Shown here: one piece after another, positions 13,188 to 36,571 of the stretch | How positions within the stretch are numbered: the first letter of the stretch is position 1 | How the letters are laid out: every line of letters starts with the position of its first letter | Assembly: GCA_035295985.1 (NCBI GenBank) | Contig: DATHBT010000004.1 | Coordinates: 4,170 to 68,169 of the forward strand | Origin: Pyrinomonadaceae bacterium | GTDB lineage: Bacteria > Acidobacteriota > Blastocatellia > Pyrinomonadales > Pyrinomonadaceae | DNA: 64,000 bases | Reading direction: 5' to 3' | Notes under the pieces: model-generated | Told to the model about the DNA's origin: nothing | Database searches by the model: none | Seen by the model: only the letters and a program-made list of their open reading frames with translations | Made by a program: the position numbers and the translations under genes

Positions 13188-13255
13188 AATCGTGAACGCG
13201 AACCGTAAACGGTAGAGGACGACTTGTCCTTACCTGTTTACGATTCACGATTCAC
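13188..13255. repeat. imperfect hairpin abutting the VWA gene stop codon (weak member of the heptamer-arm hairpin class)
   Basis: CGTAAACGGTA (13204-13214) pairs with TACCTGTTTACG (13231-13242) with a 1-nt bulge. The flanking CGTGAAC/CGCGAAC units and ACGATTC repeats pair only partly. Confidence 0.4.
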
Positions 13256-14523
13256 TCGTCTTTCGCTTCCTGCTGCGTCATGCCGGCGGCGACGTAGCCG
13301 CGGCGGGAGCGCAGTTCAAGGCCGCTGCGGCGGGGCGTGACGGTGAGGCGGCGGTACTCGGTCGGGGGCGCTTCGGCGAGCGCGCGCTTGGGGCTATAGG
13401 TGACGACGTACTGCGTGCCGATCTCGCGGGCCACCTCCTCGCCCTGCGCGACGAGTTCTTCGTCCGACGCGGGCAGCAGGATTCGGCCGCCCGTCTCAAG
13501 AGTGAGCGTTCGCATCTGCTGCTCGCCGCGTTTCTGGGCGCTCTCGTAGCGCTTGCGCAGGCGGCGCATCGCCGGGTCGAAGTTGACGGTGGCGATGGTG
13601 GCCTGCGCGCCGCCGTTCGCGCCCGGCCCGATCCCGCCGCCGCGGTTGACCGTCGGCGGCGTGCGCGGATCGACGCCCGCGACCGCCACGCCCGACGCGG
13701 CCACGCTGCCCGGCGGCGGCCCGGCCGGCGCTTTCTTACTCTTCTCCTTCTCGACCCTCCTGCCCAGCGTGCCGGTGCCGACGACGTGGACGCTCACCTG
13801 TGCCGCCTGCAAGCGGCGGTACGCCTCCGCGTAGCCCGCGCGCCCGCCGAGCACGCTCGCGTCCGTGAGAATCCTGATCAGCTCTTCGGGCGACGTGTCG
13901 CCGCCCGGCGTCTCGACGCCGTCGGTCAGCAGCACGACGTGGCGGTTGCCGAGCGGCTGATCGGCGAAGAGGCGCGCGGCCTCGTTCAGGGCTTCGGCGT
14001 GGCGCGCGCCCGTGCCCGTAGAGAGTTTCGAGCGCAGCGTGTGGCGCGCGGCTTCGAGGTCGGCCGTCCAAGGCTGGATGAGTTCGGTGCGGCGGTTGAA
14101 CTGGATGACGGCGACCGAATCGCCCTCGCGCAAATGGTTGATGAGGTTTAGGGCCATCTGCCTCGTCGTGTTCGTGCGCTGTCCGGGGTTGAGTTCGCCG
14201 CCGGTGTTGAGGACGAGCAGGACGTGGGCCGGGATGCGGCGGATGCTGCGCACCTGTTGCGGCACGCCGTCTTCCAGGACGAGCACGTCGTCGCGCTCCA
14301 AGGAGGGATCGAAGCGGCCGTACTGGTCGCGCGCGAAGACGGGCACGCGCACCTCCTCGGTGAAGACGCGCACGTCCGGCTGCTGCGCGTCCGCGCCGGC
14401 GGGCGACTGAGCGGGCGTAGGGCTGGGCTTCGCGGGCGGCTGCACGCGGCCCGACTGCGCGCCCGAGTCCGCGGCGAAAAGGAGTGTCAACGCGAGGAGA
14501 AAGACTGCGCGGCGCGTGTTCAT
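13252..14523 (-). CDS. secreted VWA (von Willebrand factor A) domain protein, acidobacterial VWFA-related type
   Basis: Start at ATG 14523 gives the signal peptide MNTRRAVFLLALTLLFAADSGAQ. VRVFTEEVRVPVFARDQYGRFDPSLERDDVLVLEDGVPQQV, followed by VLLVLNTGG, matches my recollection of the N-terminal pattern of the VWFA-related acidobacterial domain family. Confidence 0.78.
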   Translation of the reverse strand: MNTRRAVFLLALTLLFAADSGAQSGRVQPPAKPSPTPAQSPAGADAQQPDVRVFTEEVRVPVFARDQYGRFDPSLERDDVLVLEDGVPQQVRSIRRIPAHVLLVLNTGGELNPGQRTNTTRQMALNLINHLREGDSVAVIQFNRRTELIQPWTADLEAARHTLRSKLSTGTGARHAEALNEAARLFADQPLGNRHVVLLTDGVETPGGDTSPEELIRILTDASVLGGRAGYAEAYRRLQAAQVSVHVVGTGTLGRRVEKEKSKKAPAGPPPGSVAASGVAVAGVDPRTPPTVNRGGGIGPGANGGAQATIATVNFDPAMRRLRKRYESAQKRGEQQMRTLTLETGGRILLPASDEELVAQGEEVAREIGTQYVVTYSPKRALAEAPPTEYRRLTVTPRRSGLELRSRRGYVAAGMTQQEAKDE

Positions 14524-14632
14524 AAAAACTCCGTGGGTGAATCGTACTGACAAAATTACTTCCGGTCAGATGCTCCTAATATGCCGCGCGAGTTGCCTGA
14601 AGAAATAGCCACCAGCCGTCGGCAATCGGCCG

Positions 14633-15640
14633 TCAACTTTGTGTCTTGCGGCTCTGCGATTGGACGGCCGTGATGGCGATGGCGTCAACGATGTCGTCTG
14701 CCTTGCAGCCGCGCGAGAGATCGTTGCAGGGTTTGTCCAACCCTTGAAGGACAGGGCCGATGGCGGTCGCGCCGGCCAGCCGTTCGGTCAGCTTGTAGGC
14801 GATGTTGCCCGCTTGCAGGTCTGGGAAGATGAGGACGTTGGCGCGCCCCGCGACCTGCGACCCCGGCGCTTTCGATTGGCCGACCGAGGGGACGAGCGCG
14901 GCGTCGGCCTGCAACTCGCCGTCGATCTCCAGATCGGGCGCGCGCGCGCGCACCGTCTTCGTCGCCTCCACGACCTTGTCGATTAGCTGGTGTGTGGCGC
15001 TGCCCTTCGTCGAGAAGGAGAGCATGGCGACGCGCGGCTCTGTTTCGAGCAGCGCGCGGCAGGAGTCGGCCGAGGCGACGGCGATCTCGGCCAGCTCGAC
15101 CGAGGTCGGGTTGACGACCACGCCGCAGTCGGCGTAGATGAGCGCGCCTTCGGCCCCGAAGTCCGCGCGCGGCAGGGCCATGACGAAGAAGCTTGAGACG
15201 AGCTTGAAGCCGCGGCGGACGCCGACGCAGTGGAGCGCGGCGCGCACCGTGTGCGCGGTCGTGTTCGTCGCGCCCGCGACCGAGCCGTCCGCGCGGCCCT
15301 GGCGGACGAGCAGGTTGCCGTAGTAGAGCGGGTCTTGCACGGCGATGCGCGCCTCGTCGGGCATGAGGCCCTTGGCGCGGCGCAGCTCGTGGAAGAGCGC
15401 GGCCGTCTTGTCGAAGTCCGGGGCGCGCCGGTGATCGATAATCTCGACGCCGGAGAGATCGGCGTTCGCGTCGCGCGCGGCCTGCCTGATCTTCTCCTCG
15501 GAGCCGAGCACGGTGATGCGCGCGATTTTGTCGCGGGCGCAGATGCCTGCCGCCACGACCGTGCGCGGGTCTTCGCCCTCGGGAAGTATGATGTGCTGCG
15601 GGTCTGCGGCGGCGCGCCGCCGGATGCGTTCGAGGATCAT
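14633..15640 (-). CDS. pta: phosphate acetyltransferase (short form)
   Basis: 335-aa ORF beginning [31 protein letters not shown], with C-terminal [18 protein letters not shown]. Both are typical of Pta. Confidence 0.92.
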
Positions 15641-15801
15641 GATTAGCTGTTAGCCATTAGCTCTTAGCTGTTAGCCGGAATAAGTAGTGGAGCGCGGGCA
15701 AGTATAGTTCAAGCCGGCGGGGGGCGATAGCGCGCGGCGGTCGGCGGCCGGGTGGCGGCGAAGAGCTAACAGCTAAGAGCCAACGGCTAATGGCTAACAG
15801 C
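15641..15801. repeat. heptamer-arm hairpin, TGTTAGC family, copy A
   Basis: The left arm has 5 units, GATTAGC TGTTAGC CATTAGC TCTTAGC TGTTAGC (15641-15675). The right arm is GCTAACA GCTAAGA GCCAACG GCTAATG GCTAACA (15765-15799). The units pair in register with a few mismatches and wobbles. The loop is 89 nt. The left arm starts immediately after the pta start codon position. Confidence 0.8.
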
Positions 15802-15904
15802 TTTTCCAGACTTTCGCCATGCCTGTAACAAGGCGCGCCGCTATCTAGTGGCCGTTTGAGGGCGAAGCCGTCCGAAAGTCCGTCCGCCGCAGGGAGGGAA
15901 ATCG

Positions 15905-16402
15905 ATGGAGAGCAGATTCAAAGTGCTGGGCCATGGGGCGCACCCGATCCTGATCGTCTTCCCGCTGGGGCTGCTGTCAACCTCGGTCATCTTCGACGTG
16001 ATCTACTTCGCGACGGGCAACGAGCAGTTCTCGCTCGTCTCCTACTGGATGATCGCGGCCGGCGTCATCGGCGGGATCGTCGCGGCCGTGCCGGGCTTCG
16101 TGGACTGGTGGGCCATCCCGCAGGGGACGCGGGCCAAGCGCGTCGGGTTAGTCCACGGCCTCGGCAACGACGTGGTGCTCGTCCTCTTCGGCGTCAGTTG
16201 GTGGCTGCGCCGCGACGCCCCGCCGAACTACCCGCCCGGCGCGGTCGAGGCGCTGCTCTCGTTCGCCGGCTTCGGGCTGGCGCTCTTCACAGGCTGGCTC
16301 GGCGGCGAACTGGTCGAACGGCTCGGCGTCGCCGTGCACGAGGGCGCGCACCTGAACGCGCCGAACACGCTTACGGGCCGGCCCGCGCACGAGGACGAGT
16401 GA
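15905..16402 (+). CDS. DUF2231 domain membrane protein
   Basis: 165-aa ORF with four predicted TM helices. HPILIVFPLGLLSTSVIFDVIYF matches the DUF2231 N-terminal signature. Confidence 0.7.
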   Translation: MESRFKVLGHGAHPILIVFPLGLLSTSVIFDVIYFATGNEQFSLVSYWMIAAGVIGGIVAAVPGFVDWWAIPQGTRAKRVGLVHGLGNDVVLVLFGVSWWLRRDAPPNYPPGAVEALLSFAGFGLALFTGWLGGELVERLGVAVHEGAHLNAPNTLTGRPAHEDE

Positions 16403-16415
16403 GGCGGGAAGGGAA

Positions 16416-16539
16416 TTAGCCACAGAGGGCACAGGGAGCACCGAGGGAGATATAAGGGCCGATCCGAAATCCTCCGAGTGTGGAGTTTCGGATCGGCCCT
16501 TCCGTTTTTCTCCGAGTCCTCTGTGCCCCCTGTGGCTAA
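16416..16539. repeat. nested-palindrome intergenic element, copy 2
   Basis: TTAGCCACAGAGGGCACAGGGA (16416-16437) and TCCTCTGTGCCCCCTGTGGCTAA (16517-16539) flank an inner hairpin at 16454-16469 / 16486-16501. The inner stem core GGGCCGATCCGAAA/TTTCGGATCGGCCC is identical to copy 1. Confidence 0.8.
16454..16510 (+). terminator. Rho-independent terminator of the DUF2231 gene
   Basis: AAGGGCCGATCCGAAA pairs with TTTCGGATCGGCCCTT, followed by CCGTTTTTC (T run 16505-16509). Confidence 0.75.
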
Positions 16540-16576
16540 AACAGGGTGCGACTCGATCACGCCGCGGAGTCGCGCT

Positions 16577-17995
16577 TCAACTTTCGGAATCTTTCAGCGC
16601 GGCGAGCAGCTTGTCGTGGATTCTGTCGAAGCCGCCGTTGGACATGACGGCGACGGTGTCGCCCGCGCGGAGCTGCGGCGCGAGGTGCGCGACGATTGCG
16701 TCCGCGCCGTCGAGGCAGAAGGCGGGCGTCTCGCCGCTCGCGGCAACGTCGCGGACGAGTTCGTCTGCGTCCAGGAGCCGCCCGTACTTGCTGCCCTTGT
16801 CGCGCTCGAAGACCTGCGCGACGACGACGTAGTCGGCCCGCCGCAAAGCCTCGACGTACTCTTCCTGGAAGACCGCGAGGCGCGAGGAGGCGGAGCGCGG
16901 CTCGAAGACGGCGACGAGTCGCCCCTGCCTGTACTTCTCGCGCAGCGCCTGCAAGGTCTCTCGCACGGCCGTCGGGTGGTGCGCGAAGTCGTCGATGACG
17001 GTCACGCCGTTCACAGTGCCGCGCACCTGCATCCGCCGCTGCACGCTCTGGAATGTCGCGAGCGCCTCTTCGATCGCGCTGTTCTCGACGCCCCACGCCG
17101 CGGCGGCGACGATGACGGCCAGACAGTTGCGCACGTTGAACTGGCCGATGAGCGGCGTCTCGAACTCGCCCCACACGCGCCCCTCGCGGAAGACTTTGAA
17201 TCGCGTGCGCTCGCCCGAAAAGTCTATGTCGCGCGCCTGCCACGCGGCGTCTTCCGACGTGCCGAAGGTCTCGACCCGCGTGTGGAGGCGCGCGCCCATC
17301 GCGCCCACGACTTCGCGCACGGCTGGGCTGCCCCATCCGGCGACGAGGCGGCCATTTCCCGGCACCAGATTGATCAGACGCTGGAAGGCCGTCTTGATCG
17401 CGTCGAGGTTCTGGTAGATGTCGGCGTGGTCGAACTCGATGTTGTTGACGATTGCGACCTCGGGCAGGTAGTGCATGAACTTCGGCCCCTTGTCGAAGAA
17501 GGCCGTGTCGTACTCGTCGCCCTCGATGATGAAGTGGTCGCTGTCCGTAACCCTGAAACTCTTGCCGAAGTTCTGCACGACGCCGCCGACGAGGAACGAG
17601 GGGTTGAGGCCGCCGACCTCCATCACCCACGTCGCGATGCTCGTCGCGGTGGTCTTGCCGTGCGTGCCGGCGACGACGAGCGAGCGCCGCCCGCGTATGA
17701 ACTCCTCCTTCACGACCTCGGCCTGCGAGCGGTACACGAGCCTCCGGTTCAGAGTCTCCTCGACCTCGGCGTTGCCGCGCGACAGTGCGTTGCCGATGAC
17801 GACGCAGTCGGGCGCGGGGGTAAGGTTGCCGGGCGCGTACCCCTGGGCGACCGGGATGCCCAGCCCTTCGAGCATCGTGGACATCGGCGGATAGACGTTC
17901 GCGTCCGACCCCGTCACCCTGTGCCCGCGCGCCTGCAACATCCCGGCCAAGCTAGCCATCGCCGTCCCGCAGATTCCGATCAGGTGGTAGTGCAT
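16577..17995 (-). CDS. mpl: UDP-N-acetylmuramate:L-alanyl-gamma-D-glutamyl-meso-diaminopimelate ligase
   Basis: MHYHLIGICGTAMASLAGMLQARGHRVTGSDANVYPPMSTMLEGLGIPV is the Mpl N-terminal signature. The Mur-ligase P-loop GTHGKTTT is present. Confidence 0.92.
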   Translation of the reverse strand: MHYHLIGICGTAMASLAGMLQARGHRVTGSDANVYPPMSTMLEGLGIPVAQGYAPGNLTPAPDCVVIGNALSRGNAEVEETLNRRLVYRSQAEVVKEEFIRGRRSLVVAGTHGKTTATSIATWVMEVGGLNPSFLVGGVVQNFGKSFRVTDSDHFIIEGDEYDTAFFDKGPKFMHYLPEVAIVNNIEFDHADIYQNLDAIKTAFQRLINLVPGNGRLVAGWGSPAVREVVGAMGARLHTRVETFGTSEDAAWQARDIDFSGERTRFKVFREGRVWGEFETPLIGQFNVRNCLAVIVAAAAWGVENSAIEEALATFQSVQRRMQVRGTVNGVTVIDDFAHHPTAVRETLQALREKYRQGRLVAVFEPRSASSRLAVFQEEYVEALRRADYVVVAQVFERDKGSKYGRLLDADELVRDVAASGETPAFCLDGADAIVAHLAPQLRAGDTVAVMSNGGFDRIHDKLLAALKDSES

Positions 17996-18107
17996 AAGAA
18001 GCTGTTGGCTATTAGCTGTTAGCTGTTAGCCGGAAGAAATTAGCTTTCAGTCTCCGCCCCGGTTGTAATTCTCGGTTTTGCTAACAGCTAACAGCTAATA
18101 GCTATTC
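17996..18107. repeat. heptamer-arm hairpin, TGTTAGC family, copy B
   Basis: AAGAAGC TGTTGGC TATTAGC TGTTAGC TGTTAGC (17996-18030) faces GCTAACA GCTAACA GCTAATA GCTATTC (18080-18107). Positions 18010-18030 pair perfectly (21 bp) with 18080-18100. The loop is 49 nt. The element fills the gap between the HK stop and the mpl start. Confidence 0.85.
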
Positions 18108-19448
18108 CTCACTCTTGTCTATGGGGATAGTGAAGGAGAAGGTCGAGCCTTTGCCCTCCTGCGAGTCAACCTTGATTTGGCCGCCGTGGAGTTCGACGAG
18201 CTGGCGGGTGATGTAGAGGCCGAGGCCCGTGCCCTTCTCGCTGCGGGTGGCGCGCGAGCGGGCCTGCTCGTACTTGTCGAAGAGGCGCGGGATGTCCGCG
18301 GCGGGGATGCCGACGCCGGTGTCGGAGACGGAGAAGCGCAAGTGTTCGCCCTCCTCCGCCGCGCGGAGGGTTACGCGCCCCTCGCGCGGCGTGAACTTCA
18401 GCGCGTTCGAGACGAGGTTGACGAGGACGCGCCGGAGCTTCTGGCGGTCGGCGCGCACCGCGGGCAGTTCGTCCGAGACGCCGAGTTCGAGCGCGATGCT
18501 TTTCTCCTCGGCGAGAGGGCGCATCGACTCGTAAACCTCGCCGGCCACGGCGGCCGGCCCGACCGAGCCGAGTTCCAGCTTGAGCGAGCCGGACTCGATC
18601 TTGGCCGAGTCCAGCAGGTCGTTGACCAGCTCGATGAGGTTGTGCGTGTTGCGCTCCATCATCGAGACCATGTTCTTCTGCTCCGGCGTCAGCTCGCCGA
18701 GCCGGCCCGACGAGAAGAAGCTGATGACGCCGCTGATGACCGTGAGCGGCGAGCGCAGGTCGTGCGTCGTGACGGCGAGGAACTCTTCCTTAAGTTCGCC
18801 CACCTCGCGCAGCTTCGCGTTGGCCTTTTCGAGTTCGCGGTTCGACCGCTCAAGCTCCTCGTTCAGCCGCTCCAACTCCTCGCGCTTCTCTTCGAGTTCG
18901 TTGAGGACGGCGACGAGGTCGCGGTTCTGCTGCGCCAGCTCCTCGACGGCCGACTCCTCGTCCGTCTCGGCGAACCGCTCGCGCAACTCCTCGACGCGCT
19001 CGCGCGCGCCCGCCGCGACCGCCGGCGGCAGCCACTTGACGACCGTGACGCGCGTGCCGCCGCCCTCGCGCGACTCGATCTGGAAGTCGTCCATCAGGCG
19101 GCGCGTGCCGGCGAGGCCGACGCCGAGGCCGTGCGGCGACTGGAAGCGCCCGGACATGATGTCGGCGACGGTGCGCTCGCCGATCCCCGGGCCGTCGTCG
19201 CGCGCGGTGATCTGCAGGCCCGTCGCGGCGGGGCCGAATTGCGCGACGGCCAGCGTGATCGCCCCGGAGCGCGCGTACTCGTAGATGTTGCGGGTGAGTT
19301 CGGAGACTGCCGTCGTGATCTTGATCTGCGTCGTCTGGTCGAAGCCCATCTCGCGCGCGAGCCGCCGCACGCGGTCGCGCACCTTGACGATGTCCGACTC
19401 GCGCCGCACGTAGATGTCGCCGAGCCTCGTTGTCTGGATAGCATCCAT
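18102..19448 (-). CDS. histidine kinase with an N-terminal RsbT/RsbW-like GHKL serine-kinase domain (RsbT-like::coiled-coil::HisKA::HATPase)
   Basis: ATG at 19448 is preferred; the ORF track uses TTG at 19460. The N-terminal 140 aa (MDAIQTTRLGDIYV...TTAVSELTRNIYEYA...DDGPGIG...GLGVGLAGTRRLMDDFQIESREGGGTRVTVVKWL) parallels RsbT. A Glu/Leu-rich coiled coil follows, then the H-box TTHDLRSPL and the G-boxes DTGVGI / GTGLGLYI. Confidence 0.85.
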   Translation of the reverse strand: MDAIQTTRLGDIYVRRESDIVKVRDRVRRLAREMGFDQTTQIKITTAVSELTRNIYEYARSGAITLAVAQFGPAATGLQITARDDGPGIGERTVADIMSGRFQSPHGLGVGLAGTRRLMDDFQIESREGGGTRVTVVKWLPPAVAAGARERVEELRERFAETDEESAVEELAQQNRDLVAVLNELEEKREELERLNEELERSNRELEKANAKLREVGELKEEFLAVTTHDLRSPLTVISGVISFFSSGRLGELTPEQKNMVSMMERNTHNLIELVNDLLDSAKIESGSLKLELGSVGPAAVAGEVYESMRPLAEEKSIALELGVSDELPAVRADRQKLRRVLVNLVSNALKFTPREGRVTLRAAEEGEHLRFSVSDTGVGIPAADIPRLFDKYEQARSRATRSEKGTGLGLYITRQLVELHGGQIKVDSQEGKGSTFSFTIPIDKSEE

Positions 19449-19463
19449 CGTTAAGAACAAAGC

Positions 19464-19584
19464 AGTCCGTCGTCCGTGGTCAGTTGTCCGTTGTATCCGC
19501 TTCGCCAGCTCGCCGCCCGCGGATTAAGGATCGAGTTACGCAAGCTCAAACGACTGACAACGGACTACGGACAACTGACGGCCT
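19464..19584. repeat. degenerate heptamer-arm inverted repeat (NGTCCGT / ACGGACN units)
   Basis: The left arm is AGTCCGT CGTCCGT GGTCAGT TGTCCGT TGTATCC (19464-19498). The right arm is ACGACTG ACAACGG ACTACGG ACAACTG ACGGCCT (19550-19584). The best stem is 19481-19494 with 19564-19577, 14 bp with 1 mismatch. Alternative registers are possible. Confidence 0.6.
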
Positions 19585-20636
19585 TACGGCCTTGCTACCA
19601 GGATCGTGGCGTCGTCCGAGCCGCGGCTGTAGTCGCGCAGGAGGACGCCGGCAATAAGTTGCGGACTCTTCTGGAGCAGCCCGGGGTAGTCGCCCATGTC
19701 CCAGGACGCGCTCAGGCCGTCGGAGGCGAGCACAACCGTCGCGCCCTCGCCCCAGCGCGACTGCCAGACGCGCAGCTTGCCGAGCCGCGCGCCGAGCGTG
19801 CCGTTGGCCGAGACGGGGCGGATCGGCTCAGGCGAGTTGAAGACGCGCACCTCGACGTTGCCCACGCCCGCATAGTAGAAAGCCTCGCGGCGCGTGTCCA
19901 CCACGCACGCGCCCATCACCGCGCCGCGGGTGGAGCGCAGCCGGTCGTGCGTCTTCAGGAAGAGGGTGTCGAGTCCCTCCCCCTGCCACTCCGAGAGCAC
20001 TTCGAGCGCGCCGCGCGCGGCCTCCTGCGCGCCGTGGCCGTGGCCGAGGCCGTCGATGACGGCGAGCAGGGTCGCGCCCGCGCGGCGGCGGACGAAGTAG
20101 GCGTCGCCGTTGGCGGTCTCGCCCGGTCGCGGCCGGCTCCACGCGCCGTAGCGGCGCGTGGTGGCCGCGTGGTGCTGCTCCAACCGCGCGGCCTCGACCC
20201 ACTTGCGGCAGAGCAGGGCCGTGCCGTGCGTCGTGCGGCGCAAGCCGGCGGAGACGCCGCGCGGGCGCGGCGCGGGCACGGACGAGTAGAAGTCGAACTC
20301 GTGCATCAGGCGGCGGATCGCGCCCAGGCCCGCGCCGAGGCTCCCGCCCGTGGTGACGCCGTCGCGCACGGCGCGGTCGATGTCGGGGATGCCGGGGCCT
20401 TTGTCGCAGTAGAAGAGTTCGAGGCCGGGTTCTGCGCCGAGCGGCGCGGCGAAGTGAACCCATCCGCCGCCCGTCGCGTAGCGGACGGCGTTGGTGCCGA
20501 TCTCCTGTACGACGATGTCGATCTCGGCCAGCTCGCGCTCGGTGAAGCCGACGCGCTTGGCGAAACTGTGCACGGCCCGCCGCGCCGCGCCCACCTGCGC
20601 GTCGTCCGCCACCTCCATCGACTGGATCGAACGCAT
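19584..20636 (-). CDS. ATP-binding SpoIIE/PP2C family protein phosphatase (RsbT/RsbW-like kinase domain fused to PP2C)
   Basis: The N-terminus VVQEIGTNAVRYA...CDKGPGIPDIDRAVRDGVTTGGSLGAGLGAIRRLMHEFDFYS is a GHKL serine-kinase-like domain. The C-terminal half, with NGDAYFV...LLAVIDGLGHGHGAQEAA...VLASDGL, is a PP2C/SpoIIE phosphatase. Confidence 0.85.
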   Translation of the reverse strand: MRSIQSMEVADDAQVGAARRAVHSFAKRVGFTERELAEIDIVVQEIGTNAVRYATGGGWVHFAAPLGAEPGLELFYCDKGPGIPDIDRAVRDGVTTGGSLGAGLGAIRRLMHEFDFYSSVPAPRPRGVSAGLRRTTHGTALLCRKWVEAARLEQHHAATTRRYGAWSRPRPGETANGDAYFVRRRAGATLLAVIDGLGHGHGAQEAARGALEVLSEWQGEGLDTLFLKTHDRLRSTRGAVMGACVVDTRREAFYYAGVGNVEVRVFNSPEPIRPVSANGTLGARLGKLRVWQSRWGEGATVVLASDGLSASWDMGDYPGLLQKSPQLIAGVLLRDYSRGSDDATILVARP

Positions 20637-20643
20637 GAAAGAA

Positions 20644-20722
20644 ATGATGAATGCGGAATGATGAATGATGAATCAAAAACGGCGGCGGATTTGATCTTCA
20701 TTCATCATTCCGCATTCATCAT
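20644..20722. repeat. heptamer-arm hairpin (ATGATGA / TCATCAT units), 28-bp stem
   Basis: ATGATGA ATGCGGA ATGATGA ATGATGA (20644-20671) pairs with TCTTCAT TCATCAT TCCGCAT TCATCAT (20695-20722) at 27 of 28 positions. The loop is 23 nt. The element fills the rsbT stop / PP2C-fusion start gap. Confidence 0.88.
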
Positions 20723-20736
20723 TCGTCGTTTGCTGC

Positions 20737-21135
20737 TCACAGCCACCGGATGATGGTGACGCGCGTGCCGCGGCCCACCTCCGACTCGATGCTGAACTCG
20801 TCAACGAGGCGCTTCGAGCCGGGCAGCCCCTTGCCGAGGCCGCGGTCGGTGGTGAAGCCGTCGCGCATGGCGGCGTCGATGTCCGGGATGCCGGGGCCTT
20901 TGTCCTCGAAGATGAGGCGGATGCCGGCGCGCCCCTGCGGCCCGCTCGTCGGCTGCGCGATCAGCCGGCCGCGCTTGGCGTACTTGAGGATGTTGCGCGC
21001 CAGCTCGGAGGTGACGGTGGCGAGCCGCGTCTGGTCGAGCAGGCGGAAGCCGACGGCCGCGGCCAGCGCGCGCACCTCGCTGCGCGCCGCCACCATGTCC
21101 TGCTCGGACTCAAGGGTGATTGACCGCGTGTCCAA
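20737..21135 (-). CDS. rsbT: anti-sigma regulatory factor-type serine/threonine kinase, RsbT-like
   Basis: 132 aa with a TTG start that overlaps rsbS by 26 nt. Motifs are SELARNILKYA, FEDKGPGIPDIDAAMRDGFTT and GLGKGLPGSKRLVDEFSIESEVGRGTRVTIIRW. Confidence 0.85.
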   Translation of the reverse strand: MDTRSITLESEQDMVAARSEVRALAAAVGFRLLDQTRLATVTSELARNILKYAKRGRLIAQPTSGPQGRAGIRLIFEDKGPGIPDIDAAMRDGFTTDRGLGKGLPGSKRLVDEFSIESEVGRGTRVTIIRWL

Positions 21136-21547
21136 AACCGCTTAACCCCCCCGGTGCGTCCTCTTCGTCGCAGTTCTCGTCGATGCCGAACTCGTCGCGC
21201 AGCAGCCTGATCCCTTCGTCCACGTTGAGCACGGTCGAGACGCCGTTCAACTCCAGCCCCAGCTCGACGAGCGTGATGGCGACGGCCGGCTGGATGCCGA
21301 CGACCACGGTGCGCGCGTCCATGATGCGCGCCATCGCGGCGATGTCGGAGAGCATCCGGCCGATGAAGGAGTCCACCATCTCCAAGAGCGAGATGTCGAT
21401 GAGCACGCCGCGCGCGCGGGTGCGCTCTAATTCGGAGAGGATACGCTCCTGCAGGTGGACTACGGTGTGATCGTCCATGTCCGTCTGGATCGGGACGATC
21501 AGCACGCGGCCCACCTTCAGGATCGGGATGCGCTGTAAGCCGTTCAT
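21110..21547 (-). CDS. rsbS: STAS-domain stressosome scaffold protein, RsbS-like
   Basis: 145 aa forming a single STAS domain: IPILKVGRVLIVPIQTDMDDHTVVHLQERILSELERTRARGVLIDISLLEMVDSFIGRMLSDIAAMARIMDARTVVVGIQPAVAITLVELGL. Confidence 0.85.
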   Translation of the reverse strand: MNGLQRIPILKVGRVLIVPIQTDMDDHTVVHLQERILSELERTRARGVLIDISLLEMVDSFIGRMLSDIAAMARIMDARTVVVGIQPAVAITLVELGLELNGVSTVLNVDEGIRLLRDEFGIDENCDEEDAPGGLSGFGHAVNHP

Positions 21548-21555
21548 AACTTTAA

Positions 21556-21648
21556 AAGAAGCTGTTAGCTGTTAGCGATTAGCTGTTAGCCAGAAAAAAG
21601 CATTCCTTGTTTTGCTAACAGCTAACGGCTGACGGCTAATGGCTTTCT
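21556..21648. repeat. heptamer-arm hairpin, TGTTAGC family, copy C
   Basis: AAGAAGC TGTTAGC TGTTAGC GATTAGC TGTTAGC (21556-21590) faces GCTAACA GCTAACG GCTGACG GCTAATG GCTTTCT (21614-21648). The arms pair in register with mismatches and G-U wobbles. The loop is 23 nt. The element lies between the rsbR stop and the rsbS start. Confidence 0.8.
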
Positions 21649-22630
21649 ACTTTCCGTTCTCCGGGCCGGGGGCCGGCGCGTGCGCCTCGATTGGCTTGAG
21701 GCCGTTGGCGGCCGTCCCGTTCAGGTGGCGGAGTTGCGCGAGCGTCTGGGCGGGGACGATGGCGCGGCCGACGAGTTCGAGCGCGAGGCGGATGCCGTCG
21801 GACATCTGCGCGCGCGTGGTGATCTGCGAGAGGTCGATGCCGAGCTGCACCATCGTCTGCGCGATGGCGGGGGAGACGCCGGTCAGCACGCAGCGCGCGC
21901 CCATCAGGCGGGCCGCCGTGACGGTCTTGATCAGGTGGTTGGCGACGAGCGTGTCCATCGTGCGGACGCCCGTGATGTCGAGGATCGCGACCGTCGATCC
22001 GGTCTCGACGATGCGCTGGAGCAGCGCCTCCATCATCAGTTGGGCGCGGCGCGAGTCGAGAGTGCCGATGATCGGGAGCGAGAGTATCTTGTCCCAGACC
22101 TTGATGACGGGGGTGGACAGCTCCATCATGTCGGCCCGCTGCTGGCGGATGGTCTCCTCGCGCGAGCGGATGTAGTTCTCGATCATGACGAGCGCCATCT
22201 TGTCGATCATGGTGGCGAGGTGGCCGAGCAGCGAGGCGAGGCGGAAGGAGTCTTCCGACTGGTACTCCTCGACGAGCATGGGCCGCACGGAGTTGCGCAG
22301 CGAGATGACGTAGGTCGCGTTCTCGACCGGCGTGTAGCCCTTCACGGCCCGCAGGTGCGAAATCTCGTTGAGGAAGCGGCGCAGCTCGTCGAAGGCCGGG
22401 TGCTCGAACGCCTCGCCGCCTGAATCGCGCACGGCCTCGGTGAACAGCTCCAGCAGGTTGCGCGACTGCTGGCGCAACTCCTTCTTCGAGATCAGCTCGT
22501 CGCGGAACTCGTCCGACTCAAGCCTGTCCTTGATCCAGAGGTTGAGGATTTCGTCGCGGCGCGCGGCCAGGAGTGTGCTGATGCGCTCCGCGTCCTGCTG
22601 GGCTTGCGTCGTTGCGCCGGTGTCTGCCAT
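21647..22630 (-). CDS. rsbR: RsbR-like stressosome sensor (N-terminal helical sensor domain plus C-terminal STAS)
   Basis: 327 aa. The C-terminal segment STPVIKVWDKILSLPIIGTLDSRRAQLMMEALLQRIVETGSTVAILDITGVRTMDTLVANHLIKTVTAARLMGARCVLTGVSPAIAQTMVQLGIDL is a typical RsbR STAS domain. A GAGGGG SD precedes the ATG at 22630. Confidence 0.82.
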   Translation of the reverse strand: MADTGATTQAQQDAERISTLLAARRDEILNLWIKDRLESDEFRDELISKKELRQQSRNLLELFTEAVRDSGGEAFEHPAFDELRRFLNEISHLRAVKGYTPVENATYVISLRNSVRPMLVEEYQSEDSFRLASLLGHLATMIDKMALVMIENYIRSREETIRQQRADMMELSTPVIKVWDKILSLPIIGTLDSRRAQLMMEALLQRIVETGSTVAILDITGVRTMDTLVANHLIKTVTAARLMGARCVLTGVSPAIAQTMVQLGIDLSQITTRAQMSDGIRLALELVGRAIVPAQTLAQLRHLNGTAANGLKPIEAHAPAPGPENGK

Positions 22631-23207: not shown

Positions 23208-23371
23208 CTTCGTCTGACCTCCATCAGAAAAGCGGGGCTATATATTATGCAGCCTGCACAACGCATTCTACAGCCGGTTGAGTGCGGATTACTAGCCGGC
23301 TATTACAATGTCCGGCGGGGGGTTGGCTGGCTATACCCGCGCCCGGCGTGAGGCGGGGCGTGAGGGCGCGG

Positions 23372-23416
23372 TAAAAAAACGGATCGGGCGCGACGCCACG
23401 CGTCGCGCCCGATCCG
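23372..23416 (-). terminator. Rho-independent terminator of the 23435-23902 gene
   Basis: CGGATCGGGCGCGACG (23380-23395) pairs with CGTCGCGCCCGATCCG (23401-23416) as a perfect 16-bp stem. On the minus strand it is followed by TTTTTTT (complement of 23373-23379). Confidence 0.8.
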
Positions 23417-23434
23417 GCGGACTCGCGCGGCGCG

Positions 23435-29970: not shown

Positions 29971-30061
29971 GACTGTTTGCCCCTCCCTTCAGCTTTCGTT
30001 ATTGAGGCAGACGACGAAATGCGCCGACTGGTTTTTCCGCCCTCTTCATGGCTAATTTAGG

Positions 30062-30304: not shown

Positions 30305-30316
30305 CGCCGACTCCTT

Positions 30317-30649
30317 TTACAGCGGGTACGCCGTCGCCAGACGAGCCGTCTCCTCACCAGTCTCGACGAACCACACGACGCGCACCAGCGGCGCTCTCCC
30401 GTCGGGCGTTTCCAGCCCCCCTTCGACAACGTATCTCGTCCCGAAGGGCGTCGCCTCCGCCTTCGCAACTTCGTGCCGGGCCGCGTGCCGGAGCAAAGCC
30501 TCGGCCAGAGTTTGCCACGACTCCGGCGTAAAACCGAAGCGCGAGAAGAACGCCGCCTTGCCCCGCCCGTCCCTGTGAGTGGGCGAGAGCAGGTAACCGA
30601 CGATCTTCTCGCGCGGGACTAACGCCTGCTCATGATTCGGCAGTTTCAC
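30317..30649 (-). CDS. DUF6883 domain protein
   Basis: 110 aa. KIVGYLLSPTHRDGRGKAAFFSRFGFTPESW matches my recollection of the DUF6883 motif (YLL..H..G..KA.FF...GF). It lies 12 nt upstream of the DUF4926 gene. Confidence 0.68.
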   Translation of the reverse strand: MKLPNHEQALVPREKIVGYLLSPTHRDGRGKAAFFSRFGFTPESWQTLAEALLRHAARHEVAKAEATPFGTRYVVEGGLETPDGRAPLVRVVWFVETGEETARLATAYPL

Positions 30650-30687
30650 CGGGAAGGTCTTTATAGCTCGAACTCTGAACTGAGCGG

Positions 30688-31674: not shown

Positions 31675-31699
31675 TGTGGTTTCCCTCCTCGGTGGCGGC

Positions 31700-32881: not shown

Positions 32882-32950
32882 GTCGGCGCGCAGCCCACGC
32901 TCGGAGGTGGCGGGCTGCGCGCCGGACAGGAGGCCCCGTTTCGCGGTCTT

Positions 32951-35380
32951 CTAGACCCGTTTCGTTGTCGCGCCGGCGCCGGCCACTTCGATCCCGTCGC
33001 CGTCGCCGTTGGCGTCGTCGTCCTCGGCGTAGTAGCCCGAGTAGTAGCTGGCGTAATAGTAGTAGTAGCTGTTCGACGAGTCAGGCACGACGTTGTTGAG
33101 GACGATGCCGAAGATGTGCGCGCCCACGTCGAGCAGTTGCTGCTTGGCGCGGCGCACGACCGCCCGCGAGGAGCGCCCGCCGTGGACGACGAGCATGACG
33201 CCGTCAACCATCGTCGAGAGGATCGAGGCGTCGGTGAAGGAGATGGCCGGCGGCGAGTCGATGATGACGTGCTGGAAGCGCTCGGAGAGGGCCTCCAGCA
33301 GCCGGCGCATCTGCTCGCTGCCCAGCAGCTCGGCCGCGTTGGGCGGCACCGGCCCCGACGTGATGACCTTCAGGTTCGGCAGCTTCTCGTAGGTCTGCAT
33401 GAGCGAGTCGATGTCGAACTCGCCCGACAGGTAGTTGGTCACGCCGCGAGCGTTCGCCATCTCGAAGTGGCCGTGGACGCGCGGGCGGCGCAGGTCGCAG
33501 TCGATCAGCAGGACGTCGGCCCCCGTCTGCGCCAGCATCAGCGCCGTGTTGACGGCGGTCGTCGTCTTGCCCTCGGAGGGCTGCGACGAGGTGACGAGCA
33601 CGGTGCGCGGCGGCTGGCCGGCCGACGAGAGCAGCAACGACGTGCGCAGGTGGCGGTAGGCCTCCGTGACGGGCGAGCGCACGTCCTCGATGAGGGCGAG
33701 CGCCGTCGTCGGCTCGGCCGGGGCCGCCGGCGAGCCGCGGCCCAGCAGCCTGCGCTCCGTTCGAGGCGCGGGGACGAGCGCGAGGGTGGGGAGGTGGATG
33801 TGGCGATCCACGTCCTCGATGGATTTGAGCGTGTCGTCGAGGTAGTCGAGCAGGAATGCCAGGCCGATGCCGGCGGCCAGCGAGAGCACGAGCGCGATCA
33901 GGATGTTGCGCACGCGCGGCGGCCCGATGAGCGCGGGCGTGCGGGCCGGCGTGGCAACGGTGATGTTACTGCTCGCCTCGTGCGGCGACAGCTCCACCTC
34001 CTTCTGCTTCGCCAGGTGGGTGTTGTACATCTGCTTGGTCGTCTCCAGTTCCGCCTGCAGGTTCTGGAGCTTCGTCGCGGCGATGCCCTGGTAGTTGACC
34101 TTGGTGCGCGCCTGCTCGTAGTTGCGGCGCATCTTCTCGGCGTTCGACTTGGCCGACTCGTACTGGTTCCCCAGCGCCTTGACGGCGTCGTGAGCGCGCC
34201 GCTCCTTGGCGCGCTCCAGGTTGCGCCGCTGCTCGTCGAGCCTGACGACGGCCGGGTGCTTCTCGGTGTAGGTGGTGAGCAGAGCGGCGCGCTGCTCTTC
34301 CAGGTTCTCGATCTTCGTTTGGATGTCCTGGATGTACTTGTCCGCCTGCACGGTCGGGATGGAGAGGATGCTGACGCCGGGCTGCTGTAGCGACTCCTGC
34401 ACCCTCTCCCACTCCGACTGCATCGCCTTGTACTTCGCCTCGGCGTCCATCATCTGCGAGCTGTAGGTGGTGAGCTGGAGCGCCGCCAGGTTCTGACCCT
34501 GGACCGGGCCGAGCGGGAGGTCGTTCGCCTGCTTGAACCTCAGCTCGGCGTCCTGCTGCTTCTTCAGCTCGATCTGGAGATCGATGATGCGCTGCGCCAA
34601 CTGCTGGGCCGCCTCCCTCGCGCCGGAGGACTCGCGGTCGAAGTTCTCCCTGATGAAGACGTCGGCGACCGCGTCCGTGATCCTCATCGCCAGGGCCGGG
34701 TCTGAGTGCTGGAACCGGATGTCGATGAGGCTAGTGTCTTTGACGGGTGAGATGAGCAGCCCCGACCTCAAGGCGTTCTCGAGCGCCTCCATCCGGGCCT
34801 CCTGCTCGGACGTGAGCTGGGCGTCGTCCCCCTGCGGGCCGGCGGTCGAGGCGTCGTTGACGACCGACAGCCCGCCCCCGCCCGACTTCTCGTTCTTCTT
34901 CGGCTGCTGGCCCGAGACGGCGCGGCGCAGCGCGCCGAGCAGGCCGGGCCGCTCCTGCGCGCCCGTGAACGCAGGGTCGTTGTGCAGCCCGAGCCTGAGA
35001 ATGACCTTGCGCGCCAGGCGCGGGTTCTCCAGCAGCTTCAACTGCGTCGCCCAGAAGGTCGGGTCGGTGCCCGCGTTCAGGATCAGCTCCTTCGTCTTGA
35101 TCAGGTTCTTGCTCTTCTGCTCGATCTGGATGGTCGTCTGGGCCTCGTAGATCGACGGCTGCCGGTACGCCTGGATGGCGGCGAGCGAGGTGACCACCAC
35201 GGCGAGACTCAGGATGAGCCACTTCCGCTTGAGCACGATCTGGATGTAATCGCGCAGGTGCGTCGGCTCGGCCGCGTTGTAGGTATTGTTGGGGCGCTCC
35301 GGGTGGGTCAGTTCGCGTAGCGGCCGGTCGAGCGGCGCGGTGCCCGGCGGCAGGGACATCAGGCGGTTATCTTGCGACAT
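32951..35380 (-). CDS. polysaccharide co-polymerase / tyrosine autokinase (Wzc/GumC-type BY-kinase)
   Basis: 809 aa with an N-terminal TM helix and chain-length-determinant region, a long coiled-coil periplasmic part and a second TM helix. The P-loop kinase has SSQPSEGKTTTAVNTA, LLIDCDLRRP and VIIDSPP. The tail is Tyr-rich (SSNSYYYYYASYYSGYY). Confidence 0.88.
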   Translation of the reverse strand: MSQDNRLMSLPPGTAPLDRPLRELTHPERPNNTYNAAEPTHLRDYIQIVLKRKWLILSLAVVVTSLAAIQAYRQPSIYEAQTTIQIEQKSKNLIKTKELILNAGTDPTFWATQLKLLENPRLARKVILRLGLHNDPAFTGAQERPGLLGALRRAVSGQQPKKNEKSGGGGLSVVNDASTAGPQGDDAQLTSEQEARMEALENALRSGLLISPVKDTSLIDIRFQHSDPALAMRITDAVADVFIRENFDRESSGAREAAQQLAQRIIDLQIELKKQQDAELRFKQANDLPLGPVQGQNLAALQLTTYSSQMMDAEAKYKAMQSEWERVQESLQQPGVSILSIPTVQADKYIQDIQTKIENLEEQRAALLTTYTEKHPAVVRLDEQRRNLERAKERRAHDAVKALGNQYESAKSNAEKMRRNYEQARTKVNYQGIAATKLQNLQAELETTKQMYNTHLAKQKEVELSPHEASSNITVATPARTPALIGPPRVRNILIALVLSLAAGIGLAFLLDYLDDTLKSIEDVDRHIHLPTLALVPAPRTERRLLGRGSPAAPAEPTTALALIEDVRSPVTEAYRHLRTSLLLSSAGQPPRTVLVTSSQPSEGKTTTAVNTALMLAQTGADVLLIDCDLRRPRVHGHFEMANARGVTNYLSGEFDIDSLMQTYEKLPNLKVITSGPVPPNAAELLGSEQMRRLLEALSERFQHVIIDSPPAISFTDASILSTMVDGVMLVVHGGRSSRAVVRRAKQQLLDVGAHIFGIVLNNVVPDSSNSYYYYYASYYSGYYAEDDDANGDGDGIEVAGAGATTKRV

Positions 35381-35625
35381 CTTCCTCTTAAAACCTCAAA
35401 AACGGGGACACTATTTCCGGGAATCCGGACGGGCCTTAACGGACAGCGGAGCATGATAGCAGACGGGGGGGCTGCCGCGAAACGCGAAACGGGTGCGGCA
35501 GGAAGGTTTAGAGACGCCAGAGGGCGGCAGAAGGTTGCCCCGGCGGGCCGTAATCGGCCGGCCCCCGCGCCGGGCCCTCCCCGGTCGGGCCTCGCTCCCG
35601 CCACCCCGGCGCATCTTCAAGGTCT

Positions 35626-36468
35626 TCAGCGGCCGACGAACTCGCGGAGCGCGTCGCGCCAGTCGGGCAGGGCGGCGAGGCCGAGGGCGGGCGAGAGCAG
35701 GCAGCGCAGGCGCGAGTTGCGCGGGCGCGGCGCGGGCCTGCCGAGCGAGTCCATCGGGACGCCCTCAAGGCCGGAGTCATCGCAGCCGGCTACGCGCAGC
35801 GCCTCGCGCGCGTAACCCTCGAAGCTCGTGCCGTCGCCCGCGTTGACGACGTGATAGACGCCGGGCAGGTCGAGCGCGGCCAGCTCGCGCAGGCGGCGGG
35901 CGAGGTGCGGCGCGTAGGTCGGCGTGCCGAACGCGTCGTCGATGGCCCTGAGGGGCCCGCCCGCGCGTGCGAGTTCCACGACGCGCGCGAGGAAGTTCCG
36001 TCCGCCCGGCCCGAAAATCCAGCCCGTGCGGACAACCGAGCAGCGGGCCGTCGCGGCCTGCGCGCGCCGCTCGCCTTCGAGCTTGGAGCGCGCGTAGGCG
36101 CTCTGCGGGTCCGGGTCGTCGCGCTGCGTGTAGAAGCCGTCGCGGTCGCCGCGGAAGACGTAGTCGGTCGAGATGGTGACAAAGGAGGCGCCCGCGCGCC
36201 GGCTCTCCGCGGCCAGAATCTCGACGGCGTCAGAGTTGACCAGCCGCGCCCGCGCCGGGTCGCGCTCGCACCCGTCCACGTCCGTCCACCCCGCGCAGTT
36301 GACGACCGCCTCGGGCCGCTCGCGCGCGAAGACTTCCCGCACGCCCGCCGAGCGCGTGATGTCGAGCGACGCGCGCTCGTGCGCGAAGACCTCGTCGCCC
36401 AGCGCGCGGCAGTGCGCCGCCAACGCCGCGCCGACCATCCCGCCCGCCCCGGTGATCAGGATGCGCAT
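35626..36468 (-). CDS. rfbD: dTDP-4-dehydrorhamnose reductase
   Basis: 280 aa with MRILITGAGGMVGAAL, the NCAGWTDVDGCE motif and STDYVF. Confidence 0.9.
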   Translation of the reverse strand: MRILITGAGGMVGAALAAHCRALGDEVFAHERASLDITRSAGVREVFARERPEAVVNCAGWTDVDGCERDPARARLVNSDAVEILAAESRRAGASFVTISTDYVFRGDRDGFYTQRDDPDPQSAYARSKLEGERRAQAATARCSVVRTGWIFGPGGRNFLARVVELARAGGPLRAIDDAFGTPTYAPHLARRLRELAALDLPGVYHVVNAGDGTSFEGYAREALRVAGCDDSGLEGVPMDSLGRPAPRPRNSRLRCLLSPALGLAALPDWRDALREFVGR

Positions 36469-36487
36469 AAAAAGCAGGAGCCAGTTC

Positions 36488-36571
36488 GATTGCGGAATGC
36501 GGATTTCGGATTGCGGATTAGAAGACGGCCTGTCTTTACAATCCGCAATCCGAAATCCGCATTCCGCAATT
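36488..36571. repeat. heptamer-arm hairpin (GATTGCG / CGCAATC units), 31-bp perfect stem
   Basis: The left-arm units GATTGCG GAATGCG GATTTCG GATTGCG start at 36488. The 31-bp stem 36489-36519 pairs perfectly with 36540-36570 (AATCCGCAATCCGAAATCCGCATTCCGCAAT). The loop is 20 nt. The right arm ends at the rfbB stop codon (36571-36573). Confidence 0.9.

Follow-up and report, generated by a model that had tools for sequence, protein, structure and literature searches.

Long hairpins whose arms are built from tandem heptamers lie in seven intergenic spacers of a 64,000-nucleotide (nt) stretch of contig DATHBT010000004.1 (GCA_035295985.1) from a Pyrinomonadaceae bacterium, here called the window, whose positions serve as coordinates throughout; they raise the question of what such hairpins are and how they come to lie where one gene ends and the next begins. 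An initial annotation, made from the letters alone, had described six of these loci and a weak candidate as intergenic hairpins united by a 7-nt period and by placement, with a different heptamer at each locus. Comparison with related loci shows that the hairpins belong to dispersed families which share a unit core, a chirality and a position directly after stop codons, and which replace one another at orthologous spacers. These palindromic repeats are widespread in Pyrinomonadaceae, and they probably represent a superfamily of small non-coding dispersed repeats.

Abundance and placement of heptamer hairpins

Hairpins were sought as inverted repeats with arms of at least 20 nt, complementarity of at least 80% and loops of at most 200 nt; tandem arrays were delimited with Tandem Repeats Finder and the pairing of arms by an inverted-repeat search. 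Two samples were scanned: 80 mpl-centred loci from different Pyrinomonadaceae species (1.26 Mb including the window) and, independently, 80 metagenome contigs of unrelated contexts (0.49 Mb); individual loci carry numbers preceded by L. Where two figures are given together below, the first refers to the 108 Pyrinomonadaceae hairpins and the second to the metagenome sample. Genes of the related loci were called with a codon-model caller of our own, and those of the window are supported by Pfam. Calling genes by greedy open reading frame (ORF) length was rejected, because shadow ORFs opposite the true genes exceed them in length and were chosen on the wrong strand; long shadow ORFs of this kind cross hairpin arms on the plus strand of the window at 16478-18022, 19476-20753 and 35851-37443.

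Period-7 arms occur in 108 of the 241 long hairpins of the first sample (a count that leaves out two loci duplicating the window) and in 92 of the 147 of the second, whereas other periods hardly occur (in the full first set, four hairpins have period 8 and three have period 10). About 60 different heptamers are present in the Pyrinomonadaceae loci, and 260 of 300 period-7 arrays have an inverted partner at most 260 nt away. The 200 hairpins of these 160 related loci bear out the view that intergenic hairpins with heptamer-built arms are a real class.

The hairpins are intergenic: they overlap coding sequence by 6% in the first sample, where 85% of the DNA is coding, and by 4% in the second (82-85% coding overall). 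Most lie between co-directional genes (90/108 and 54/79) and few between divergent genes (6/108 and 8/79), the remaining 17 of the metagenome sample being in convergent gaps. Placement is biased towards the stop codon of the upstream gene, which precedes the 5' arm by a median of 2 nt and 4 nt, and the 3' arm is followed by the next start codon after a median of 14 nt and 34 nt. In G+C-rich loci, 19% of co-directional spacers of at least 40 nt carry a heptamer hairpin. Solo arrays are also found in co-directional spacers; 12 of 20 are G-poor in the sense direction and lie 1-13 nt upstream of a start codon, and the spacer upstream of pta in L003 has the start-proximal array only. Together with the pta locus of the window, described below, these solo G-poor arrays suggest a role for a single arm, and the start-proximal array may function as a leader without a Shine-Dalgarno motif.

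Dispersed repeat families

The 31-nt arm of the hairpin at 36489 (ATTGCGGAATGCGGAWTTCGGATTGCGGATT, with A or T at one position) recurs in at least 120 metagenome contigs, which range in GC content from 0.38 to 0.69 and have flanks that are nearly all different; a 43%-GC contig carrying this GATTGCG 31-mer is also Pyrinomonadaceae. Because the exact 31-mer recurs, the order of its variant units (a-b-c-a) is fixed, which slippage alone would not preserve; among the contigs with the 31-mer, the partner arm keeps this order in 21 cases and has other orders elsewhere. Since both flanks and samples differ, a single contaminant or an assembly artefact is an unlikely source of the identical copies. 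Blastn of a plasmid collection with the hairpin at 36.5 kb gave no match, possibly owing to the low-complexity filter.

Other families are dispersed in the same manner. Six AAGGATG copies in L033 and L035 occupy different spacers in both orientations, with arms and loop that align at 78% column identity, and hairpins of the CAGTTTT family have a common loop at non-orthologous spacers. There are hybrid copies, and nested ones that sit within the loops of other copies; in L102, L160, L126, L141 and L164, GATTGCG arms surround GGGGAGA or GAAGGCA arrays and their complements. The heptamers of individual loci, described at first as differing from locus to locus, are therefore better described as members of defined, dispersed families, given the recurrence of the 31-mer and the loops common to paralogous copies.

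Hairpins of the window

Tandem Repeats Finder and inverted-repeat pairing recovered all six hairpins of the initial annotation and its weak candidate where they had been placed, and the complete pairing it had reported for the arms at 36489 is correct (Table 1). Each arm consists of three to five tandem heptamers, and all seven spacers are predicted to fold as a single long RNA hairpin, with free energies of -37.5 to -73.5 kcal/mol and z scores of -3.6 to -11.2 against shuffled sequences. A period scan of the window gave 12 stretches of period 7, one of period 9 and none of periods 8 or 10-12; six period-7 hairpins are present, compared with none in 30 first-order Markov simulations of the window, which set the chance level. 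No additional heptamer hairpin occurs in the rest of the 64 kb. Rfam scans at gathering score and by E-value matched none of the hairpins, a tRNA-Leu(CAA) gene being the sole pass and plant microRNA hairpins at 20642-20725 the only sub-threshold matches, and a consensus scan of the window called none of the hairpins a terminator and no promoters within them.

Table 1. Heptamer hairpins and composite palindromes of the window. Arrays are the period-7 arrays delimited by Tandem Repeats Finder; fold gives the predicted free energy (kcal/mol) and z score.
Feature	Position	Strand	Arms and loop	Arrays	Fold	Setting
GTGAATC/AATCGTG-family hairpin	13192-13255	-		13240-13255	-38.1; z -6.3	follows the VWA-domain gene stop (13252) directly; promoter-like site and tRNA-Leu(CAA) downstream
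GCTGTTA/GCTAACA hairpin	15641-15802	.	15643-15675/15765-15797, 33 nt, 88% complementary; loop 89 nt	15642-15675/15764-15802	-73.5; z -6.4	between divergent pta (ATG 15640, abutting the arm) and DUF2231 (ATG 15905)
GCTGTTA hairpin	18000-18107	-	18008-18030/18080-18102, 23/23 paired	18000-18030/18080-18104	-50.6; z -6.0	gap between histidine kinase (stop TAG 18102-18104, inside the arm) and mpl (start 17995, few nt from the arm)
Degenerate GTCCGTN/CAGTNGT-type hairpin	19464-19584	-	19471-19494/19557-19580, 24 nt, 83%	19465-19494/19556-19579	-63.8; z -3.6	between the RsbU-like phosphatase/ATPase stop (19584) and the histidine-kinase start (19448)
AATGATG hairpin (AATGATG-AATGCGG-AATGATG-AATGATG)	20642-20731	-	20643-20671/20695-20723, 29 nt, 97%	20643-20673/20698-20724	-54; z -7.2	gap between RsbW/T-like kinase (stop 20737) and RsbU-like (start 20636) genes
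GCTGTTA hairpin	21559-21645	-	21559-21597/21607-21645, 39 nt, 77% (or 26 nt, 85%)	21560-21590/21614-21644	-37.5; z -3.6	gap between RsbR (stop 21647) and RsbS/STAS (start 21547) genes; T-rich tract CTTCTTTT after the hairpin (mRNA sense)
GATTGCG hairpin (a-b-c-a; inner mini-stem AAGAC/GTCTT)	36489-36570	-	36489-36519/36540-36570, 31/31	36488-36519/36539-36570	-65.4; z -11.2	gap between rmlB-like (stop 36571, abutting the arm end at 36570) and rmlD (start 36468) genes
Composite palindrome	16416-16539	.	outer arms 54 nt, 78%		-85.2; z -9.6	between convergent DUF2231 and mpl
Composite palindrome, second copy	3449-3564	.	inner arms 18/18		-81.3; z -9.9	between convergent unannotated ORF and M3 peptidase gene

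The window belongs to a metagenome contig of 88 kb (ERZ27286100 k141_155403). The minus-strand genes around the hairpins encode RsbR (21647-22630), RsbS/STAS (21110-21547), an RsbT/W-like kinase (20737-21135), an RsbU-like protein (19584-20636), a histidine kinase (18102-19448), the Mpl ligase (16577-17995), Pta (14633-15640) and a VWA-domain protein (13252-14523). Measured against these Pfam-supported genes, the proposed placement of arms at stop and start codons was upheld; arm ends lie 0-8 nt from the start codons of pta and mpl. The genes between 18102 and 22630 form a stressosome-like module of an RsbR with an RsbRD_N domain, RsbS/STAS, the RsbT/W-like kinase and an RsbU-like ATPase-PP2C fusion, and it ends with a hybrid histidine kinase (HATPase_c_2 and HisKA). 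Modelled as longest ORFs, the rsbS and kinase genes share about 26 nt, the overlap being smaller in the gene calls of the contig itself, and the other junctions of the module carry hairpins.

In the divergent gap upstream of pta, a block of the hairpin loop (15676-15764), GCTATCGCCCCnCCGCCGGCTTnAACTATACTTGCCCGCG, is conserved in the window, L003 and L083, whereas divergence is seen in other loops; the block is a candidate promoter or operator of pta. If it serves as one, the pta leader would carry one hairpin arm only. The heptamer family of the hairpin at 13192-13255 is present also in L021, L025 and L083. The promoter-like site just downstream of that hairpin is TTGACG-18-TATCAT at 13166-13137, and the tRNA-Leu(CAA) gene occupies 13044-13126 on the minus strand.

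Shared anatomy and translation signals

The hairpins have more in common than the 7-nt period and the placement to which the initial annotation had limited them. G exceeds C in the 5' arm of 95/108 and 86/90 hairpins, and 181 of the 200 hairpins taken together have a G-rich, C-poor 5' arm; because a palindrome reads alike from both strands, this chirality is a property of the element and not of its orientation. In a common register the units have a core of T-N-A-(G/A), with T in 92% and A in 83%, and an information content of 4.33 bits compared with 3.34 +/- 0.08 for shuffled units. AAAGC/GCTTT and GAAGA/AAGAC (GAAGAC) are enriched both at the hairpin ends and in the loops. AAAGCAG is not enriched over the whole window (7 matches, 4.5 expected). 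Arms measure 20-49 nt (median 29) and loops 6-163 nt (median 24), and the flanks are A-rich before the hairpin and T-rich after it.

Several of these properties concern translation. A stop trinucleotide occurs on one arm or the other in 89 of 108 units (72.9 +/- 4.3 in shuffles), and since 7 is not a multiple of 3, three stop-bearing units close all three frames. The 3' arm contains no ATG, GTG or TTG in 80/108 hairpins. Genes that start at most 30 nt downstream of a hairpin have a Shine-Dalgarno-like motif in 10% of cases, compared with 34% of other genes (p = 3e-5). Shine-Dalgarno use is weak in the lineage as a whole: in the window and the related loci, only 32% of the 775 genes predicted carry GGAG, GAGG or AGGA 4-20 nt before the start, and C and T are frequent in the four positions that directly precede the start codon.

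The hairpins had been distinguished from ordinary intrinsic terminators by the length of their stems and the lack of a U tract. The former point stands: an intrinsic terminator would have a compact G+C-rich stem and a loop of 3-8 nt, far shorter than the median arm and loop found here, and the terminator scan was negative. The latter holds only in part, as T makes up 26-41% of the 15 nt that follow the 3' arm (31-41% of the first 8), and in 31 of 90 hairpins five or more of 8 nt are T. The earlier exclusion of CRISPR arrays, which have at least three direct repeats of 23-50 nt with unique spacers of similar length between them, was justified, the repeats being solely 7-nt tandem units in two inverted blocks. 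Integron attC sites, slippery heptamers of frameshift signals and CsrA (GGA) sites were also considered and discarded, since the sequences match none of them.

Turnover at orthologous spacers

Orthologous spacers were compared between relatives that show about 89% DNA identity in the flanking genes or an RsbS protein identity of at least 90%. The spacer between the RsbW-like and RsbU-like genes contains AATGATG in the window and L086, CAGAGGT in L003, L087 and L088, CAGATGT in L085 and no hairpin in L083; in L085, every unit of the two arms reads CAGATGT, as against CAGAGGT in nine relatives. Between RsbU and the histidine kinase the unit is GTCCGTN, CAGTTTT, CAGTCGT, CAGTGGT or GCTGTTA, depending on the relative, and L003 has a hybrid 3' arm. 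The loop of the hairpin between the histidine kinase and mpl (18031-18079) is inverted relative to L003 and L083, to which it aligns with scores of 19.5 and 17 as its reverse complement but only 4.5 and 4 in the sense direction; judged from these alignments, the inversion indicates recombination or template switching between the arms.

Mismatches between arms bear on whether complementarity is kept in DNA or in RNA. In the 90 hairpins between co-directional genes, read in the mRNA sense, there are 63 G.U and 67 A.C mismatches, so that the excess of G.U over A.C by which selection at the RNA level would be recognized does not appear. Because a selected RNA helix should favour G.U, these counts, together with the inverted loop and the mirrored variant units, point to maintenance of complementarity in DNA, by copying or template switching; a role of the RNA remains compatible with this, and the predicted hairpins are very stable.

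Two further features were seen in the relatives. A pair of TIR-domain genes lies between rsbR and rsbS, where the window has a hairpin, in L085 (3092-3954), L087 (1161-2029) and L088 (1160-2028); TIR domains can mark defence genes, and the pair may represent defence genes inserted in the stressosome-like operon. A palindrome resembling the classical repetitive extragenic palindromic (REP) type (GGTCAGAACCnCCCGC..GCGGGnGGTTCTGACC, containing GGTAGCGGG) lies inside heptamer hairpins upstream of mpl in L010 and L020 and also in L158, which implies that REP-type repeats coexist with the heptamer families.

Possible origin and function of the hairpins

We think it probable that the hairpins constitute a superfamily of dispersed non-coding palindromes, some 70-160 bp long, that resemble REP/REPIN and foldback elements, are filtered by translation signals and would behave in operon mRNA as REP sequences do. 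An element comprises a family-defined arm of three to six near-identical heptamers (the 5' arm G-rich and C-poor with the T-N-A-G core), ends that are often AAAGC...GCTTT, an inner mini-stem that is often GAAGAC...GTCTTC and a variable apical loop. In DNA, copying, correction of one arm by the other through template switching or recombination, and replication slippage by 7 nt would keep the arms both periodic and complementary; a change can spread through all units of both arms. The placement statistics suggest a filter by selection in which copies survive only in a gap that begins at a stop codon; stop trinucleotides, present above chance, would tend to close all three frames, and the arm beside the downstream start, being G-poor, would offer few ATG, GTG or TTG codons and few Shine-Dalgarno-like sites. 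In the polycistronic mRNA, each copy would give the upstream cistron a highly stable hairpin at its 3' end, where the most plausible REP-like action would be that of an exonuclease barrier, a partial terminator or an RNase III target, and its G-poor array would be the Shine-Dalgarno-free leader of the next gene.

Several observations weigh against this proposal. No target-site duplication was found at 10 perfect GATTGCG copies, flank identity of at most 2-3 nt being at chance level, and no transposase, REP-associated tyrosine transposase (RAYT) or other mobilising gene was found among the 20 window proteins scanned, a search that covered about half of the window's genes as annotated and only fragments of related genomes, no genome-wide search having been made. 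At one orthologous spacer, 10 species retain a CAGAGGT hairpin although its loop has diverged, and most relatives have some heptamer hairpin in the spacer upstream of mpl; a selected function explains such persistence no less well than a selfish element does. Between two contigs of 99.8% identity no hairpin has changed, be it by gain, loss or unit number, which also makes hypervariability of the phase-variation kind unlikely. Finally, a repeat-family model does not account for families that differ by the same dinucleotide change in every unit of both arms and yet keep GCGG at unit 2: AATGATG|AATGCGG|AATGATG|AATGATG, AGGGATG|AGGGCGG|AGGGATG|AGGGATG and AAGGATG|AAGGCGG|AAGGATG|AAGGATG, as seen in the hairpin at 20643 of the window and in the copies of L032, L035 and L040. 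Unit-wide dinucleotide changes of this kind, and a 31-mer that is exact in at least 120 contexts at 38-69% GC, would fit arms written by a templated process, through a Pyrinomonadaceae enzyme system that recognizes, copies or repairs heptamer-periodic palindromes. We regard the existence of such a system as quite doubtful; if real, it would be either a new mode of mobilisation without target duplication or a host device that installs hairpin punctuation after stop codons, and this punctuation would replace intercistronic junctions led by Shine-Dalgarno motifs.

Alternatively, the hairpins might be primarily selected RNA elements (terminators or attenuators, punctuation for RNase III or exonucleases, or translational couplers) whose occurrence in many copies is secondary. 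Their persistence at orthologous spacers across species would then be expected from constraint on structure and sequence together, and so would the stop codon at the base of the stem, the great stability of the predicted folds, the scarcity of Shine-Dalgarno-like motifs before the downstream genes and the A-rich 5' and T-rich 3' flanks, which are like those of bidirectional terminators; other gene ends of the window also bear long perfect hairpins, some without a T tract. Against selection of the RNA as the primary cause stand the lack of an excess of G.U over A.C mismatches, the inversion of a loop without apparent consequence, the predicted inclusion of a single arm in the transcript at the divergent pta/DUF2231 gap and in L003, and the small share of hairpins (31/90) with at least 5 T in the 8 nt after the stem, none being called by the terminator scan. 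An identical 31-mer in at least 120 unrelated contexts, moreover, requires copying and not selection alone, and we hold this explanation to be unlikely, if worth bearing in mind.

The same 31-mer largely refutes the notion of local microsatellites, according to which an array grew by slippage in each spacer, as is assumed for the repeats of cyanobacteria treated below, and acquired its inverted partner by template switching, with neither dispersal nor function. Among long simple repeats, heptamers show the greatest over-representation in many bacteria (Mrazek 2007, cited in PMC4679880 and PMC4692102), close relatives have heptamers differing by one or two bases at one spacer (CAGTTTT, CAGTCGT, CAGTGGT), and L003 has a hybrid array; but against local slippage stand a unit order of a-b-c-a fixed in at least 120 unrelated places, loops conserved between paralogous copies, an unchanged unit number at 99.8% identity, and the strong chirality and common T-N-A-G core, and we give this notion almost no credence. 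Recognition sites in DNA, at which a nucleoid-associated protein or a global regulator would read the periodic units of the two strands, or a variant in which the DNA forms cruciforms or G-quadruplexes, would be consistent with the lack of G.U bias, which points to DNA over RNA, and with a T-N-A-G core recurring each 7 bp; three units span 21 bp, or two turns of B-DNA. We know of no candidate protein, however, and about 60 heptamers occur with a common core of only 3-4 nt; most units are unable to form G-quadruplexes, and placement tracks stop codons rather than promoters, with few hairpins in divergent gaps. Although binding sites have been proposed for the paired repeats of Geobacter metallireducens (PMC2700814), and cruciforms or G-quadruplexes for Xanthomonas GGGAATC (PMC4692102), such roles are an improbable explanation of the Pyrinomonadaceae hairpins.

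Other palindromes of the window

Two composite palindromes (Table 1) are related to the heptamer hairpins but distinct from them. Their outer arms, TTAGCCACAGAGGGCACAG... (TTAGCCACrGAGGGCACAG...), have a sub-repeat of about 9 nt and enclose a perfect hairpin like that of an intrinsic terminator, GGGCCGATCCGAAA...TTTCGGATCGGCCC, which is followed by a T-rich stretch; the copy at 16416-16539 has an orthologous copy in L083. Long perfect G+C-rich hairpins with stems of 17-21 bp and short loops lie in or beside gaps at 23380-23416, 40973-41013, 44184-44229, 2122-2157 and 8725-8772, and a T run follows only the first of these five. Hairpins that resemble terminators but lack a U tract seem to be common in this genome.

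Comparison with known heptamer and palindromic repeats

The initial annotation knew of no hairpin-forming, multi-heptamer repeats in an Acidobacteria-like genome. The host is indeed such an organism (Acidobacteriota, Blastocatellia), and literature searches on Acidobacteria with heptamer repeats and on the present repeat sequences gave nothing relevant, but the architecture itself has been published for Xanthomonas and Geobacter. In Xanthomonas campestris and X. axonopodis, 70-75 convergent pairs exist among about 185 arrays of about four GGGAATC heptamers (Rehm et al. 2015, PMC4692102); these repeats are 89-93% intergenic, mostly between co-directional genes and far nearer to the end of the upstream ORF than to the downstream gene, and their type is conserved between species while their length varies (PMC4692102). 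The Pyrinomonadaceae hairpins are likewise intergenic pairs of arrays on opposite strands, between co-directional genes and closest to the upstream gene end, and, on our reading of 'convergent orientation', the G-rich strand forms the 5' arm in Xanthomonas too. Xanthomonas has one heptamer, which has been interpreted as a G-quadruplex unit, whereas about 60 are present here and most lack G tracts; runs of at least three G occur in only a few families (AGGGATG, GGGGTTA, GGGGAGA) and in no window heptamer, so that a G-quadruplex unit of the Xanthomonas type does not apply to the window. The loops, the nesting, the replacement of families and the link to genes without Shine-Dalgarno motifs were not part of that description.

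Geobacter metallireducens has 8 pairs of five-fold MTYCTGA, 24 of four-fold GTTGCTYN and 21 of three-fold TCTCCGTS[Y] (Aklujkar et al. 2009, PMC2700814), on opposite strands at variable spacing in operon gaps such as proB-proA and absent from the sister species, which were interpreted as binding sites of IHF/HU or a global regulator (PMC2700814). Like Pyrinomonadaceae, it has several families per genome and paired inverted arrays in operon gaps, and its heptamer contains CTGA; in contrast, its units are 7-9 nt rather than strictly 7 nt and far fewer, and the study gave no analysis of their position relative to stop and start codons.

REP elements are extragenic, multi-copy, family-specific palindromes, with several families per genome, whose inverted doublets fold into hairpins some 100 nt long; found inside operons and at operon ends, they are transcribed, cause no target-site duplication, stabilise upstream mRNA and attenuate transcription, and as REPINs they are mobilised by the RAYT transposase, an IS200-like tyrosine transposase with a gene that the repeats flank. 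The REP elements, bacterial interspersed mosaic elements (BIMEs) and REPINs of Enterobacteria and Pseudomonas were reportedly described by Higgins (1982), Nunvar (2010) and Bertels and Rainey (2011). The heptamer hairpins, too, are extragenic, multi-copy, family-specific inverted doublets that form hairpins. REPs, however, are imperfect palindromes of 20-40 nt with a head of the GTAG type, and here the arms are heptamer arrays with ends of the AAAGC/AG type; REP/REPIN elements are the closest functional and population counterpart, though the sequence features that define REPs are absent. MITEs (miniature inverted-repeat transposable elements) such as Correia/NEMIS are small non-autonomous palindromes with target-site duplications and an insertion-sequence parent, and Correia hairpins in mRNA are targets of RNase III; eukaryotic foldback transposons have terminal inverted repeats made of short tandem repeats. 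The heptamer hairpins resemble both in being small palindromes, and foldback elements in the make-up of their arms, but unlike MITEs they have no target-site duplication at the GATTGCG copies.

The short tandemly repeated repetitive (STRR) sequences of heterocystous cyanobacteria are said to have the units CCCCAGT, TTGGTCA and CAACAGT (Mazel, 1990). TAACTGA arrays of Beggiatoaceae end 1 nt upstream of start codons and provide stops in all frames, with one inverted case in 170 'Maribeggiatoa' sets (MacGregor 2015, PMC4679880), and their host lineages make weak use of Shine-Dalgarno motifs (PMC4679880). Both consist, like the present repeats, of tandem heptamers in non-coding DNA (4-6% coding overlap here), but mostly as direct arrays of one or few heptamers per genome rather than as inverted pairs of about 60 heptamers in a Pyrinomonadaceae host; none of these canonical heptamers equals the three STRR units, and membership of that cyanobacterial class was rejected.

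Inverted heptamer pairs have thus been noted before, in Xanthomonas and Geobacter, and their origin and role were never settled. The Pyrinomonadaceae provide a richer case, with dozens of families, occupancy of about one-fifth of the co-directional spacers near the locus, clear rules of placement and sequence, and visible turnover, in which spread without target duplication, the reason for a 7-nt unit and the punctuation of operon mRNA become testable questions. In practice, the repeats will mislead gene callers (through shadow ORFs), assemblers and searches for small RNAs in these very abundant soil bacteria. What was known already is the inverted heptamer array; what is new is an unusually rich Pyrinomonadaceae variant of it that is, as far as we found, undescribed.

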